Of a DNA stretch of 64,000 nt, positions 1 through 10,809 are shown one piece after another. The DNA lies in NCBI RefSeq assembly GCF_050320075.1, contig NZ_CP190018.1, one strand, 5' to 3'. The number at the start of each line of letters is the position of its first letter. Position 1 is the first letter of the stretch. A program made the translations under genes and the position numbers. A model generated the notes under the pieces. It saw nothing but the letters and a program-made list of their open reading frames with translations, was not told the DNA's origin and searched no databases. This stretch comes from Escherichia coli (GTDB lineage: Bacteria > Pseudomonadota > Gammaproteobacteria > Enterobacterales > Enterobacteriaceae).

Positions 1-112
1 AAAGCGCATAAAAATAACAACATAAAACACTTTACCACCACCAAAAAATTCTCTATTGCATTGTTTTTTAATGAAAAAACATTATTCTCGTAATATTTCA
101 CGATAAATAACA

Positions 113-132
113 TTAGGATTTTGTTATTTAAA
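113..132 (+). promoter_or_regulatory. GAD box (GadE/RcsB-type site) upstream of gadB
   Basis: Sequence ttaggattttgttatttaaa matches the 20-bp GAD box consensus as I recall it, about 80 bp upstream of the gadB ATG. Confidence 0.7.
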
Positions 133-211
133 CCCGAGTCCTTTGCACTTGCTTACTTTATCGATAAATCCTACTTTTTTAATGCGATCCAATCATTTTA
201 AGGAGTTTAAA

Positions 212-1612
212 ATGGATAAGAAGCAAGTAACGGATTTAAGGTCGGAACTACTCGATTCACGTTTTGGTGCGAAGTCTATTTCCACTATCGCAGAATCAAA
301 ACGATTTCCGCTGCACGAAATGCGCGATGATGTCGCATTCCAGATTATCAATGACGAATTATATCTTGATGGCAACGCTCGTCAGAACCTGGCCACTTTC
401 TGCCAGACCTGGGACGACGAAAATGTCCATAAGTTGATGGATTTATCCATTAACAAAAACTGGATCGACAAAGAAGAATATCCGCAATCCGCTGCAATCG
501 ACCTGCGTTGCGTAAACATGGTTGCCGATCTGTGGCATGCGCCTGCGCCGAAAAATGGTCAGGCCGTTGGCACCAACACCATTGGTTCTTCCGAGGCCTG
601 TATGCTCGGCGGGATGGCGATGAAATGGCGTTGGCGCAAGCGTATGGAAGCTGCAGGCAAACCAACGGATAAACCAAACCTGGTGTGCGGTCCGGTGCAA
701 ATCTGCTGGCATAAATTCGCCCGCTACTGGGATGTGGAGCTGCGTGAGATCCCTATGCGCCCCGGTCAGTTGTTTATGGACCCGAAACGCATGATTGAAG
801 CCTGCGACGAAAACACCATCGGCGTGGTGCCGACTTTCGGCGTGACCTACACCGGTAACTATGAGTTCCCGCAGCCGCTGCACGATGCGCTGGATAAATT
901 CCAGGCCGACACCGGTATCGACATCGACATGCACATCGACGCCGCCAGCGGTGGCTTCCTGGCACCGTTCGTCGCCCCGGATATCGTCTGGGACTTCCGC
1001 CTGCCGCGTGTGAAATCGATCAGTGCTTCAGGCCATAAATTCGGTCTGGCTCCGCTGGGCTGCGGCTGGGTTATCTGGCGTGATGAAGAAGCGCTGCCGC
1101 AGGAACTGGTGTTCAACGTTGACTACCTCGGTGGTCAGATTGGGACTTTCGCCATCAACTTCTCCCGCCCGGCGGGTCAGGTAATTGCACAGTACTATGA
1201 ATTCCTGCGCCTCGGTCGTGAAGGCTATACCAAAGTACAGAACGCCTCTTACCAGGTTGCCGCTTATCTGGCGGATGAAATCGCCAAACTGGGGCCGTAT
1301 GAGTTCATCTGTACCGGTCGCCCGGACGAAGGCATCCCGGCGGTTTGCTTCAAACTGAAAGAGGGTGAAGATCCGGGATACACCCTCTACGACCTCTCTG
1401 AACGTCTGCGTCTGCGCGGCTGGCAGGTTCCGGCCTTCACTCTCGGCGGTGAAGCCACCGACATCGTGGTGATGCGCATTATGTGTCGTCGCGGCTTCGA
1501 AATGGACTTTGCTGAACTGTTGCTGGAAGACTACAAAGCCTCCCTGAAATATCTCAGCGACCACCCGAAACTGCAGGGTATTGCCCAGCAGAACAGCTTT
1601 AAACATACCTGA
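212..1612 (+). CDS. gadB: Glutamate decarboxylase beta (PLP-dependent)
   Basis: 466-aa product starting [21 protein letters not shown] and ending KHT; followed by gadC. The ORF-track start at 143 is an upstream extension. Confidence 0.95.
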
Positions 1613-1632
1613 TAACGTTTAACGGTAACGGT

Positions 1633-1658
1633 GTCCCGAAACACACCCGTTTCGGGAC
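1633..1658 (+). other. Perfect 10-bp stem-loop in the gadB-gadC intergenic region (possible intra-operon attenuator or processing site)
   Basis: gtcccgaaac / acaccc loop / gtttcgggac directly after the gadB stop; not followed by a clean U-tract. Confidence 0.35.
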
Positions 1659-1767
1659 AATTTCCAAAGTCTGTTCACTGGCATTAGCAACGGAAAATAT
1701 TGTTCTGAATACGTTTCAGAACAAAACAGGTGCGGTTCCGACAGGAATACCGTTTTAGGGGGATAAT

Positions 1768-3303
1768 ATGGCTACATCAGTACAGACAGGTAAAGCTAAG
1801 CAGCTCACATTACTCGGATTTTTTGCCATAACGGCATCGATGGTAATGGCTGTTTATGAATACCCTACCTTCGCAACATCGGGCTTTTCATTAGTCTTCT
1901 TCCTGCTATTAGGCGGGATTTTATGGTTTATTCCCGTGGGACTTTGTGCTGCGGAAATGGCTACCGTCGACGGCTGGGAAGAAGGTGGTGTCTTCGCCTG
2001 GGTATCAAATACTCTGGGGCCGAGATGGGGATTTGCAGCGATCTCATTTGGCTATCTGCAAATCGCCATTGGTTTTATTCCGATGCTCTATTTCGTGTTA
2101 GGGGCACTCTCCTACATCCTGAAATGGCCAGCGCTGAATGAAGACCCCATTACCAAAACTATTGCAGCACTCATCATTCTTTGGGCGCTGGCATTAACGC
2201 AGTTTGGTGGCACGAAATACACGGCGCGAATTGCTAAAGTTGGCTTCTTCGCCGGTATCCTGTTACCTGCATTTATTTTGATCGCATTAGCGGCTATTTA
2301 TCTGCACTCCGGTGCCCCCGTTGCTATCGAAATGGATTCGAAGACCTTCTTCCCTGACTTCTCTAAAGTGGGCACCCTGGTTGTATTTGTTGCCTTCATT
2401 TTGAGTTATATGGGGGTAGAAGCATCTGCAACCCACGTCAATGAAATGAGCAACCCAGGGCGCGACTATCCGTTGGCTATGTTATTGCTGATGGTGGCGG
2501 CAATCTGCTTAAGCTCTGTTGGCGGTTTGTCTATTGCGATGGTCATTCCGGGTAATGAAATCAACCTCTCCGCAGGGGTAATGCAAACCTTTACCGTTCT
2601 GATGTCCCATGTGGCACCGGAAATTGAGTGGACGGTTCGCGTGATCTCCGCACTGCTGTTGCTGGGTGTTCTGGCGGAAATCGCTTCCTGGATTGTTGGT
2701 CCTTCTCGCGGGATGTATGTCACAGCGCAGAAAAACCTGCTGCCAGCAGCATTCGCTAAAATGAACAAAAATGGCGTACCGGTAACGCTGGTCATTTCGC
2801 AGCTGGTGATTACTTCTATCGCGTTGATCATCCTCACCAATACCGGTGGCGGTAACAACATGTCCTTCCTGATCGCACTGGCGCTGACGGTGGTGATTTA
2901 TCTGTGTGCTTATTTCATGCTGTTTATTGGCTACATTGTGTTGGTTCTTAAACATCCTGACTTAAAACGCACATTTAATATCCCTGGTGGTAAAGGGGTG
3001 AAACTGGTCGTGGCTGTTGTCGGTCTGCTGACTTCAATTATGGCGTTTATTGTTTCCTTCCTGCCGCCGGATAACATCCAGGGTGACTCTACCGATATGT
3101 ATGTTGAATTACTGGTCGTGAGTTTCCTGGTGGTACTTGCCCTGCCCTTTATTCTCTATGCTGTTCATGATCGTAAAGGCAAAGGGAATACCGGCGTCAC
3201 TCTGGAGCCAATCAACAGTCAGAACGCACCAAAAGGTCACTTCTTCCTGCACCCGCGTGCACGTTCACCACACTATATTGTGATGAATGACAAGAAACAC
3301 TAA
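1768..3303 (+). CDS. gadC: Glutamate:GABA antiporter
   Basis: 511-aa polytopic membrane protein of the APC family, immediately downstream of gadB. Confidence 0.95.
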
Positions 3304-3328
3304 CCATGTCTGAATGGTTATAAGATAA

Positions 3329-3356
3329 GGGAGCGATAATTCATCGCTCCCTTTTT
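3329..3356 (+). terminator. Rho-independent terminator after gadC
   Basis: gggagcgat / aattc / atcgctccc followed by ttttt. Confidence 0.7.
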
Positions 3357-3433
3357 CGTGCTTGCTGTCGTATTGACTTAACCGGGATAAGTACGAGAAT
3401 GAGCGCACATCTGTTTACCGGAAACCAGCACAT

Positions 3434-4753
3434 ATGGATATCTGCTCCCGAAACGAGAAATTAGCGATTAGAAGACCAGCGATACTGGTTGCACTGGCAC
3501 TTTTACTGTGTAGTTGTAAAAGCACGCCTCCAGAGTCCATGGTGACACCACCAGCGGGTTCAAAGCCACCAGCCACGACGCAACAATCGTCACAACCGAT
3601 GCGTGGCATCTGGCTGGCTACGGTGTCTCGCCTCGACTGGCCACCGGTTTCCTCGGTTAACATTAGTAACCCCACCAGCCGGGCCCGTGTACAACAACAG
3701 GCGATGATCGACAAACTGGATCATCTGCAACGTCTCGGCATAAACACGGTCTTTTTCCAGGTCAAGCCGGACGGTACCGCCCTGTGGCCATCAAAAATTT
3801 TGCCGTGGTCCGATCTTATGACCGGAAAGATTGGTGAAAATCCAGGTTACGATCCGCTGCAATTTATGCTCGACGAAGCCCACAAGCGTGGGATGAAAGT
3901 ACACGCCTGGTTTAACCCCTATCGCGTATCGGTTAATACGAAGCCCGGTACTATCAGGGAACTGAATAGCACTCTGTCTCAACAACCAGCGAGCGTCTAT
4001 GTGCAACACCGCGACTGGATCAGAACGTCCGGCGATCGCTTTGTCCTCGACCCGGGCATCCCTGAAGTTCAGGACTGGATCACATCAATAGTCGCGGAAG
4101 TGGTTTCCCGCTATCCGGTAGATGGCGTGCAGTTTGACGACTATTTCTATACTGAGTCACCAGCTTCACGGCTAAATGATAACGAAACGTACCGCAAATA
4201 CGGAGGCGCATTTGCGTCAAAAGCAGACTGGCGGCGCAACAATACTCAGCAGTTAATTGCGAAGGTATCGCACACCATTAAAAGCATTAAGCCGGAAGTC
4301 GAATTTGGCGTTAGCCCGGCAGGCGTGTGGCGTAACCGATCACACGATCCGCTCGGTTCCGATACCCGAGGCGCGGCAGCCTATGACGAATCCTACGCTG
4401 ACACCCGTCGATGGGTGGAACAAGGATTGCTGGATTACATTGCTCCCCAAATTTACTGGCCGTTCTCACGGAGTGCCGCACGTTATGACGTTTTGGCAAA
4501 ATGGTGGGCAGATGTCGTTAAACCGACCAGGACCCGCCTGTATATCGGTATCGCCTTCTATAAAGTGGGTGAACCTTCAAAGATAGAGCCAGACTGGATG
4601 ATTAACGGCGGCGTACCGGAACTGAAAAAACAGCTCGATCTTAACGATGCCGTGCCAGAAATTAGCGGCACAATCTTGTTCCGTGAGGACTATCTGAATA
4701 AACCGCAGACTCAACAAGCGGTTAGCTATCTGCAAAGTCGTTGGGGCAGTTAA
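3434..4753 (+). CDS. yddW: Glycoside-hydrolase-like lipoprotein YddW
   Basis: 439-aa ORF with a lipoprotein-type N-terminus (LLLCSCK); position after gadC matches K-12 synteny. Confidence 0.85.
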   Translation: MDICSRNEKLAIRRPAILVALALLLCSCKSTPPESMVTPPAGSKPPATTQQSSQPMRGIWLATVSRLDWPPVSSVNISNPTSRARVQQQAMIDKLDHLQRLGINTVFFQVKPDGTALWPSKILPWSDLMTGKIGENPGYDPLQFMLDEAHKRGMKVHAWFNPYRVSVNTKPGTIRELNSTLSQQPASVYVQHRDWIRTSGDRFVLDPGIPEVQDWITSIVAEVVSRYPVDGVQFDDYFYTESPASRLNDNETYRKYGGAFASKADWRRNNTQQLIAKVSHTIKSIKPEVEFGVSPAGVWRNRSHDPLGSDTRGAAAYDESYADTRRWVEQGLLDYIAPQIYWPFSRSAARYDVLAKWWADVVKPTRTRLYIGIAFYKVGEPSKIEPDWMINGGVPELKKQLDLNDAVPEISGTILFREDYLNKPQTQQAVSYLQSRWGS

Positions 4754-5129
4754 ACTCCCATTCATACTTTGTGACAAGCCGGTGGTTTACCCACCGGCTT
4801 GCTACCCTCTTGAAATATCCCACTAGTAATCATGCTTACTTAAGTCAAATTAACTACGCAATTAACCACACTTAGTTAAACAGTCATAAATCCCCTAATA
4901 AAAATGTATGAACATGAAAAAACATACGATATTCGCTGTCACCGAAAAATAATTACGATGGGCTATACTCTTCTGAAGAACAGTAGCGTAGATTGAAACT
5001 GTCCTAAGTCGCTTATTTCTTTTCAGTATATCTTCATATTTCAGGAGAATATGGTGCAGTTAGTCGATCTCGCACGTTGCGTTTCGTTTTGATTCCGTCT
5101 GCTTTCCCAGCCTTATAAGGGTGTGAATT

Positions 5130-6669: not shown

Positions 6670-6700
6670 TTCATAACCATCAGTCCTCAATGACGATTAA

Positions 6701-6734
6701 ACACCATTGCCTGCGCAATGGTGTTTTTGTTTTT
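6701..6734 (+). terminator. Rho-independent terminator after sra
   Basis: acaccattgc / ctgc / gcaatggtgt followed by tttttgttttt. Confidence 0.75.
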
Positions 6735-10068: not shown

Positions 10069-10778
10069 TAAATATCCTCCGGCATAGCCGGAGGTTTTTC
10101 AAATGCGCCTGTAAGGCTCTGTTACCAGCCGCGCCCTAACAGGCGCATACGATCTGACATTTGCATTCAACTTCGTTACTTACGGCCCGTAAACGGGCTG
10201 CCCGGATATGGAATCGATAACTGCTCCCCCATTTTATCCTCTTCAAGCTGGTGCTTTATGTAGTCCTGTATCTTCGCCGTGTTCTTACCCACCGTATCGA
10301 CATAGTACCCTCGGCACCAGAACTCCCTGTTTCTGTATTTGAATTTCAAATCCCCAAACTGCTCGTAAAGCATCAGACTGCTTTTCCCTTTCAGATATCC
10401 CATAAAGCCGGATACGCTCATTTTGGGTGGGATTTCCACAAGCATATGGATATGATCTGCGCAGCACTCTGCTTCCAGAATCCGTACGCTTTTCCACTCA
10501 CACAGCTTTCTCAAAATACTGCCTATCGCCCTACGCTTCTCTCCGTAAAACGCCAGTCTTCGGTATTTCGGCGCAAAAACTATGTGATATTTACAGTTCC
10601 AGCGGGTGTGCGCTAAGCTCTTTTCGTCCCCCATTGGGACCCCCTTTTGATTTCTTGTTTGACACTTGCAGTTGCCAGACCGCAAGGTGTTTTAACAAAT
10701 CAAAAGGGGTTTTAATAACTGGCTCAAAGCTGAAAGCTTTCCGGAACCCCCAGCCTAGCTGGGGGTTTTCTGTGCACA
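10067..10778 (-). mobile_element. IS200-like element (IS200/IS605 family), copy 1, about 712 bp
   Basis: Shares about 712 bp including terminal hairpins (cctccggcatagccggagg; ccccagctaggctggggg) with an inverted copy at 49967..50678; boundaries inferred from where the two copies diverge from their flanks. Confidence 0.7.
10176..10634 (-). CDS. tnpA: IS200-type Y1 (HUH) transposase TnpA
   Basis: 152-aa product MGDEKSLAHTRWNCKYHIVFAPKYRR with a HIHML HUH motif; the ORF-track start at 10685 is an extension. Confidence 0.9.
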   Translation of the reverse strand: MGDEKSLAHTRWNCKYHIVFAPKYRRLAFYGEKRRAIGSILRKLCEWKSVRILEAECCADHIHMLVEIPPKMSVSGFMGYLKGKSSLMLYEQFGDLKFKYRNREFWCRGYYVDTVGKNTAKIQDYIKHQLEEDKMGEQLSIPYPGSPFTGRK

Positions 10779-10809
10779 AAAAAAATGGCGCTTCTTAAAG
10801 CGCCATTTT
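10778..10809 (-). terminator. Rho-independent terminator after fdnI
   Basis: On the minus strand: aaatggcgc / tttaagaa / gcgccattt followed by an 8-T run. Confidence 0.7.

Follow-up and report, generated by a model that had tools for sequence, protein, structure and literature searches.

A stable hairpin poor in downstream uridines between gadB and gadC of Escherichia coli coincides with an mRNA 3′ end and may act as an exonuclease barrier

Between gadB and gadC, the mRNA of the Escherichia coli gadBC operon folds into a stable hairpin (hairpin 1) whose structure, as judged from comparisons among relatives, is itself under selection, and just past which an RNA 3′ end is found together with read-through into gadC. 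With a probability of about 0.5, hairpin 1 works at the RNA level as an exonuclease barrier within the gadBC message and sets the 3′ end of a gadB-only mRNA. The gadBC genes are the core of the main extreme-acid resistance system in E. coli and in many gut bacteria. The window analyzed here, a stretch of 64,000 nucleotides, is E. coli chromosomal DNA and carries gadB and gadC separated by a spacer of 155 nt. The features of the locus, in window coordinates, are as follows:

212–1612, plus strand: gadB, glutamate decarboxylase coding sequence (open reading frame and translation; RefSeq annotation of the homologous K-12, O157, and ATCC 25922 loci)
1610–1612, plus strand: gadB stop codon, TGA
1632–1659, plus strand: hairpin 1, with the 5′ arm at 1632–1642, the loop at 1643–1648, and the 3′ arm at 1649–1659 (folding)
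1663, plus strand: equivalent of the RNA 3′ end mapped at 1570594 (−) in strain MG1655, transferred by sequence identity from MG1655
1768–3303, plus strand: gadC, glutamate/GABA antiporter coding sequence (open reading frame; RefSeq annotations)
3327–3357, plus strand: gadBC operon terminator, of which 3327–3353 is a perfect 11-bp hairpin (Term-seq row 1568900 (−))
Next gene after gadC: digH

The initial annotation, made from the sequence alone, had described a perfect 10-bp hairpin without a clean U-tract at 1633–1658, and both parts of that description agree with the sequence. The segment reads GTCCCGAAAC-ACACCC-GTTTCGGGAC, in which 10 bp pair without mismatch around a loop of 6 nt, and T1632-A1659 adds an 11th pair; the structure starts 20–21 nt 3′ of the gadB stop and, with 11–12 bp, a loop of 4–6 nt, and a folding energy of −18 to −20 kcal/mol in its different versions, qualifies as a stem-loop of the kind found in terminators. 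It is followed by AATTTCCAAAG, which holds 3 T among its first 8 nt and gives an RNA tail of AAUUUCC. An intrinsic terminator would be expected to carry about 5–6 or more U in 8 nt, whereas the tail here (AAUUUCCA) has 3 U in 8 nt with two A residues nearest the stem, and the T-tract score of hairpin 1 is 3 compared with 6 for the gadC terminator, in which a GC core is followed by five T at 3352–3356, the first two being counted within the stem. A consensus terminator scan did not call hairpin 1, and the same scan also missed the genuine gadC terminator because the T-run of the latter lies partly inside the stem. Folded alone (1628–1668), hairpin 1 reaches −18.9 kcal/mol compared with −8.6 ± 2.5 kcal/mol for dinucleotide shuffles (z −4.15), with none of 200 shuffles folding equally well, and the whole gadB-gadC spacer has a z of −3.29.

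RNA 3′ ends of MG1655 have been mapped by Term-seq (Adams et al., 2021, eLife, PMC7815308), and sheet M63 0.4 of Supplementary file 1 of that study, which covers minimal glucose medium at OD 0.4, lists a curated dominant 3′ end at 1570594 (−) with 33,817 reads. The layout of the table was checked on the thrL row, which places the 3′ end at position 51 of the 61-nt strings. The flanking sequence of the end at 1570594 is that of hairpin 1, and the end lies 4 nt past the closing U-A pair, at the last U of ...GGGACAAUUU (AAUUU), 51 nt 3′ of the gadB stop. A further end on the same sheet, at 1568900 (−) with 70,553 reads, belongs to the gadC terminator (Adams et al., 2021, PMC7815308) and corresponds to the C at window position 3357, 54 nt from the gadC stop. 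The presence of ends at both hairpin 1 and the gadC terminator implies that 3′ ends form at the hairpin and that read-through also occurs; the initial annotation had proposed 3′-end mapping as a way to separate gadB-only from gadBC transcripts, and the published data show an end of each kind rather than uniform read-through with no ends at the hairpin. In M63 glucose medium, transcripts that extend to the operon end are no fewer than those with a 3′ end at hairpin 1. The read counts, which are not quantitative in Term-seq, would at face value give a gadB:gadC ratio of ∼1.5:1, and since the count at the gadC terminator exceeds that at the hairpin, hairpin 1 may change the gadB:gadC ratio only slightly, if at all, under the M63, OD 0.4 conditions. 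The LB sheets list no gadBC 3′ ends (Adams et al., 2021, PMC7815308). In Supplementary file 1, the ends at hairpin 1 and at the gadC terminator are both classed as ‘orphan’ without a gene name, because at 51 and 54 nt from the respective stops they fall past the 50-nt cut-off for ‘primary’ ends; gene-name searches of the resource therefore miss both, and the text of the paper does not discuss the 3′ end at hairpin 1 (Adams et al., 2021, PMC7815308).

Sequence variation within Escherichia leaves the pairing of hairpin 1 intact. Among the window, K-12, O157:H7, and ATCC 25922, all substitutions fall in the loop (ACACCC, GAACCC, and GAAGCC), and the K-12 change creates a 12th pair, which closes an AACC tetraloop. 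A metagenome scan whose only anchors were the invariant sequences flanking hairpin 1 recovered 13 loci with three alleles (six when the previously collected loci are included), all of which are paired. In an alignment of eight Escherichia taxa, the helix is 93.8% paired and contains three compensatory pairs, found exclusively in E. albertii (U-A to C-G once and A-U to G-C twice), as well as one G.U pair in the E69-type allele (strain E69). When the partners are slid by 1–3 columns, the two-helix pairing drops from 94% to 30–52%, and 44 of 500 shuffles attain the observed number of double changes; these within-genus statistics are modest because all three compensatory changes stem from one lineage. 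Between E. coli and E. albertii, hairpin 1 differs at 15 of 30 positions, a divergence that exceeds the synonymous-site divergence of the flanking genes (26% of third codon positions in gadB and 32% in gadC), whereas the spacer on both sides of hairpin 1 differs at only 13 of 127 positions (10%) and is thus about three times more conserved than synonymous sites. Loop-only variation, compensatory pairs, and fast divergence together indicate that hairpin 1 is fixed in shape and free in sequence, and, on this comparison, that it sits in a spacer otherwise constrained in sequence.

Hairpins at this position are also common outside Escherichia. A sample of 80 gadC loci, with one genome per species, has gadB directly upstream of gadC on the same strand in about 70 cases, and 62 gadB-gadC spacers of at least 60 nt, from about 36 genera, entered the structure statistics. 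In these 62 spacers, the first ≤80 nt after the gadB stop have a mean z of −3.20, with 76% below −2, compared with a mean of −3.85 and 83% for the region after gadC, which holds the operon terminator, and a mean of −0.41 and 13% for a same-length control upstream of gadB; neither these z values nor the T-tract tests given below take phylogeny into account. A compact hairpin of −10 kcal/mol or lower is present in 57 of the 62 spacers, at a median distance of 20 nt from the stop to its start (IQR 17–29), and a hairpin of −13 kcal/mol or better is found in 32 of 36 genus-level groups. The hairpins after gadB and after gadC have nearly the same offset from the stop (median 20 vs. 21 nt) and similar stability. 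From genus to genus, the hairpins after gadB share no sequence relationship (Providencia, Acinetobacter, Tatumella, Yersinia, Brucella/Ochrobactrum, Halomonas, and others), and an independent alignable hairpin family centered on the Morganellaceae shows compensatory changes at 9 of 13 pairs. At least six T in an 8-nt window accompany 8 of 57 hairpins after gadB compared with 19 of 51 after gadC (Fisher p 0.007; Mann–Whitney p 0.001) when the windows are allowed to start inside the 3′ arm, a setting used because many real terminators pair the T-run with an upstream A-run, and the two groups do not differ when the windows start only after the stem. A canonical T-run terminator follows gadB in 5 sampled loci, from four genera and one MAG. 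At these loci, namely Yersinia rohdei (L011), Serratia sp. H1w (L016), Citrobacter sp. FP75 (L040), Comamonas kerstersii (L060), and a Proteobacteria MAG related to C. kerstersii (L058), a run of 6–8 T comes after the hairpin, which raises the question of whether expression of gadC at these loci relies on read-through or on a separate gadC promoter. In the same sample (tblastn, L010–L075), GadC of highly varied Proteobacteria (Yersinia, Proteus, Brucella, Halomonas, and Acinetobacter) is 70–80% identical to E. coli GadC and the adjacent GadB only 56–63% identical, a discordance outside Escherichia that suggests that the two genes of the operon differ in evolutionary history or in rate.

As an exonuclease barrier, hairpin 1 would act in several steps. 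RNA polymerase would mostly pass the hairpin because there is no U-tract, and transcripts cut or ending further downstream would then be trimmed in the 3′-to-5′ direction by PNPase and RNase II, which would stall at the stable 11–12 bp stem and leave a gadB mRNA with the mapped AAUUU end. The gadB message would consequently be more abundant or longer-lived than the gadC message, with a possible effect on the GadB:GadC ratio, and an excess of gadB would suit a soluble hexameric enzyme that is paired with a membrane antiporter. In most species, 17 nt or more separate the stop from the start of the hairpin, a distance at which the terminating ribosome should not melt it, and the cross-species depletion of T-tracts would also fit an exonuclease barrier. 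In the genera that carry T-run terminators after gadB, termination can do the same job.

Structures of this type have been described as protective 3′ RNA structures, a term for stable hairpins that lack a uridine tract, have a Term-seq end directly after them, occur at operon boundaries where the upstream gene is stabilized, and are conserved in relatives (Dar and Sorek, 2018, PMC5927463). Hairpin 1 is likewise stable, has no uridine tract, is immediately followed by a Term-seq end, and is conserved in relatives, where the E. albertii compensatory pairs, the genus-level groups, and the Morganellaceae covariation all point to conservation of structure. It is intergenic, unlike most of the described examples (17 of 26), which are situated within the coding region of the downstream gene, and the published tables do not include gadBC (Dar and Sorek, 2018, PMC5927463). 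In every sequence-level and 3′-end respect, hairpin 1 matches this class, whose defining kinetic trait, a differential half-life, would be predicted for gadBC as well. As with this class and malE-malF, the gene ahead of hairpin 1 encodes a soluble, abundant protein and the gene after it a membrane component. The malE-malF element belongs to the REP repeats, whereas hairpin 1 is unique in the genome. In the puf operon of Rhodobacter capsulatus (pufBA vs. pufLMX), intercistronic hairpins give a stable short mRNA and set subunit stoichiometry; this is a different organism and operon with a multi-hairpin element, and its likeness to gadBC is by analogy only. The supplements of SMRT-Cappable-seq mention neither gadB nor gadC.

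A 3′ end 4–5 nt past a strong stem is equally expected from weak intrinsic termination, and hairpin 1 may instead be a leaky intrinsic (Rho-independent) terminator, in which the stem and AAUUU release some polymerases and the end at 1663 is the primary termination product; this is the main alternative and a possible explanation, to be held tentatively. The stem of 11–12 bp contains GC pairs, carries a short loop, and is followed by three U within 5 nt, and the mapped end falls inside this short U stretch at its last U, as an intrinsic terminator would have it in vivo, a position that trimming would explain equally well. Leaky operon-internal terminators share with hairpin 1 a stem-loop ∼20 nt after the stop, a 3′ end a few nt past the stem, and substantial read-through. 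Termination is also evolutionarily accessible at this position, as canonical T-run terminators occur there in the 5 loci listed above, and the hairpins after gadB resemble those after gadC in offset and stability. Hairpin 1 nevertheless lacks the U-tract that defines leaky terminators, since its tail begins with A-A right after the stem and is poor in U, and the significant depletion of T-tracts after gadB relative to operon-end terminators argues that efficient termination has been selected against; the silence of the consensus scan points the same way and is weak evidence, given that the gadC terminator was missed too. Rho-dependent termination in the spacer or in early gadC, followed by trimming back to hairpin 1, would retain the barrier and leave the reduction of gadC to Rho. 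The 155-nt spacer is untranslated, and 3′ ends produced by Rho are as a rule unstable, being processed back as far as a stable structure (Adams et al., 2021, PMC7815308), both of which would suit such a route; the spacer downstream of the hairpin is, however, G-rich, with a C/G of 0.65–0.9 in 78-nt windows compared with a median of 1.06 over the whole window, and is not rut-like, so that a part for Rho is unlikely. Supplementary file 2 of the same study has no Rho region near hairpin 1, in bicyclomycin data from LB, where no gadBC ends are listed (Adams et al., 2021, PMC7815308), which makes this absence uninformative.

It is similarly improbable that hairpin 1 was selected for another role, such as a structure of the gadC leader, a docking site for a protein or sRNA, or a point of RNase entry or block, with the Term-seq end as a by-product. 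The unusual conservation of the rest of the spacer (10% vs. 26–32%) implies further leader functions, a lower stem formed by 1623–1631 and 1671–1680 is always pairable, and the gadC ribosome-binding site is preceded by GGA motifs and a second hairpin. On the other hand, position and stability are kept while the sequences are unrelated between genera, which fits a generic barrier better than a binding site, and the loop of hairpin 1 varies freely within E. coli. The remaining explanations, that hairpin 1 is a DNA-level palindrome (an operator or recombination site), a REP-like dispersed repeat, or a chance inverted repeat without function, are largely refuted and very improbable. A perfect inverted repeat is also a palindrome in DNA, and compensatory changes preserve palindromy too, but the G.U pair of the E69-type allele suits RNA pairing and not DNA symmetry, and an RNA 3′ end maps at the base of the hairpin. 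An 87-nt segment with hairpin 1 has a single location in 5,406 of the 5,426 complete E. coli genomes, and the hairpin pattern with up to 3 mismatches has one match in the window and none in 100 shuffles, so that hairpin 1 belongs to no multi-copy REP/BIME-like family. Perfect hairpins of at least 10 bp with loops of 3–10 nt are expected 0.63 times per shuffled 64-kb window and have 16 matches at about 9 distinct loci in the real one, from which the chance of finding one in a given 155-nt spacer is ∼0.0015; an Rfam scan of positions 1–4000 had no match within 1600–1770, even at an E-value of ≤10.

The remainder of the spacer, which leads into gadC, has features of its own:

1660–1767, plus strand: gadC leader (remainder of the spacer), with strong sequence conservation and the gadC Shine-Dalgarno sequence GGGGGA around 1756–1761
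1700–1724, plus strand: hairpin 2, a perfect 10-bp AU-rich stem (TTGTTCTGAA/TTCAGAACAA) with the 5-nt loop TACGT
1623–1680, plus strand: possible lower stem enclosing hairpin 1, with 1623–1631 pairing with 1671–1680 (RNAfold)

The low divergence of this region relative to synonymous sites implies an unrecognized sequence-specific function in the gadC leader. Hairpin 2, which the initial annotation did not report, has its sole E. coli substitution in the loop; in other Escherichia it shows no compensatory changes and four mismatched cells, and it is supported within E. coli only. Read on the minus strand, hairpin 2 is terminator-like and is followed by TATTTTCC. The possible lower stem is 100% paired in eight Escherichia, with two one-sided pair-preserving changes and otherwise invariant sequence, which makes it weakly informative, and it could form in read-through RNA only. 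Its 5′ side is provided by a short direct repeat, TAACG-TT-TAACGG-TAACGG, at 1613–1631, right after the gadB stop, which is invariant in E. coli. Three GGA motifs are present in the spacer (1694–1696, 1743–1745, and 1759–1761), and by their likeness to the gadA and gadB leaders they might, speculatively, be candidate CsrA sites. Hairpin 1 and the conserved remainder of the spacer could together constitute a regulated gadC leader, in which read-through, cleavage, or gadC translation is tuned by conditions, with an sRNA, CsrA at the GGA motifs, or the alternative lower stem of read-through RNA as candidate tuners. This is a doubtful proposition; if true, the supply of GadC would be uncoupled from that of GadB, as the proposed GadC-independent use of the decarboxylases in ‘AR1’ would require. 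A promoter-like match at 1738–1767 was dismissed because transcription from it would start inside gadC. In E. coli DX6 (L085, NZ_CP126345.1, 2389592–2390131), an IS1 adjoins the spacer ∼117 nt upstream of gadC, at the place of gadB, so that the hairpin half of the spacer is absent and gadC stands without its normal upstream context.

The gadA-gadX spacer, which follows the E. coli gadB paralog gadA in the same regulon, offers a further comparison:

1669–1711 of the E. coli CAVP773 locus (L084): gadA-gadX hairpin, AACCGAATGCCCAGC...GCTGGGCATTCGGTT, z −4.72

With a perfect 15-bp stem that begins 17 nt past the gadA stop, this hairpin has no clean T-run and is followed by gadX on the same strand. 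Its sequence is unrelated to that of hairpin 1, the homology between gadA and gadB ending ∼4 nt past the stop. The gadX gene is partly co-transcribed with gadA. At guessed coordinates in the table of Adams et al. (2021), no Term-seq row was found after gadA.

The transcriptional control of gadBC has been closely studied, and the searchable papers are silent on how the ratio of enzyme to transporter is set after transcription has started. No discussion of the gadB-gadC hairpin was found in the searchable literature, which does not reach the early gad papers, where a passing mention is possible. Hairpin 1 appears to be an ordinary kind of operon fine-tuning element, and as its mechanism class is textbook knowledge the gain is incremental, while the cross-species regularity amounts to a modest new generalization. 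A U-poor hairpin conserved in position and free in sequence in most gadBC operons, together with the 3′ end in MG1655, offers an easily mutated handle on the ratio, and the gadB hairpin is also relevant to the engineering of GABA production.

Other strong perfect hairpins are present in the window at 4775–4801, 6699–6726, 10782–10809, and 54529–54563 (13 bp). A further pair of perfect hairpins, AACCCCCAGCCTAGCTGGGGGTT at 10745–10767 and AACCCCCAGCTAGGCTGGGGGTT at 49978–50000, are almost identical to each other although separated by 39 kb and look like copies of a repeated element.
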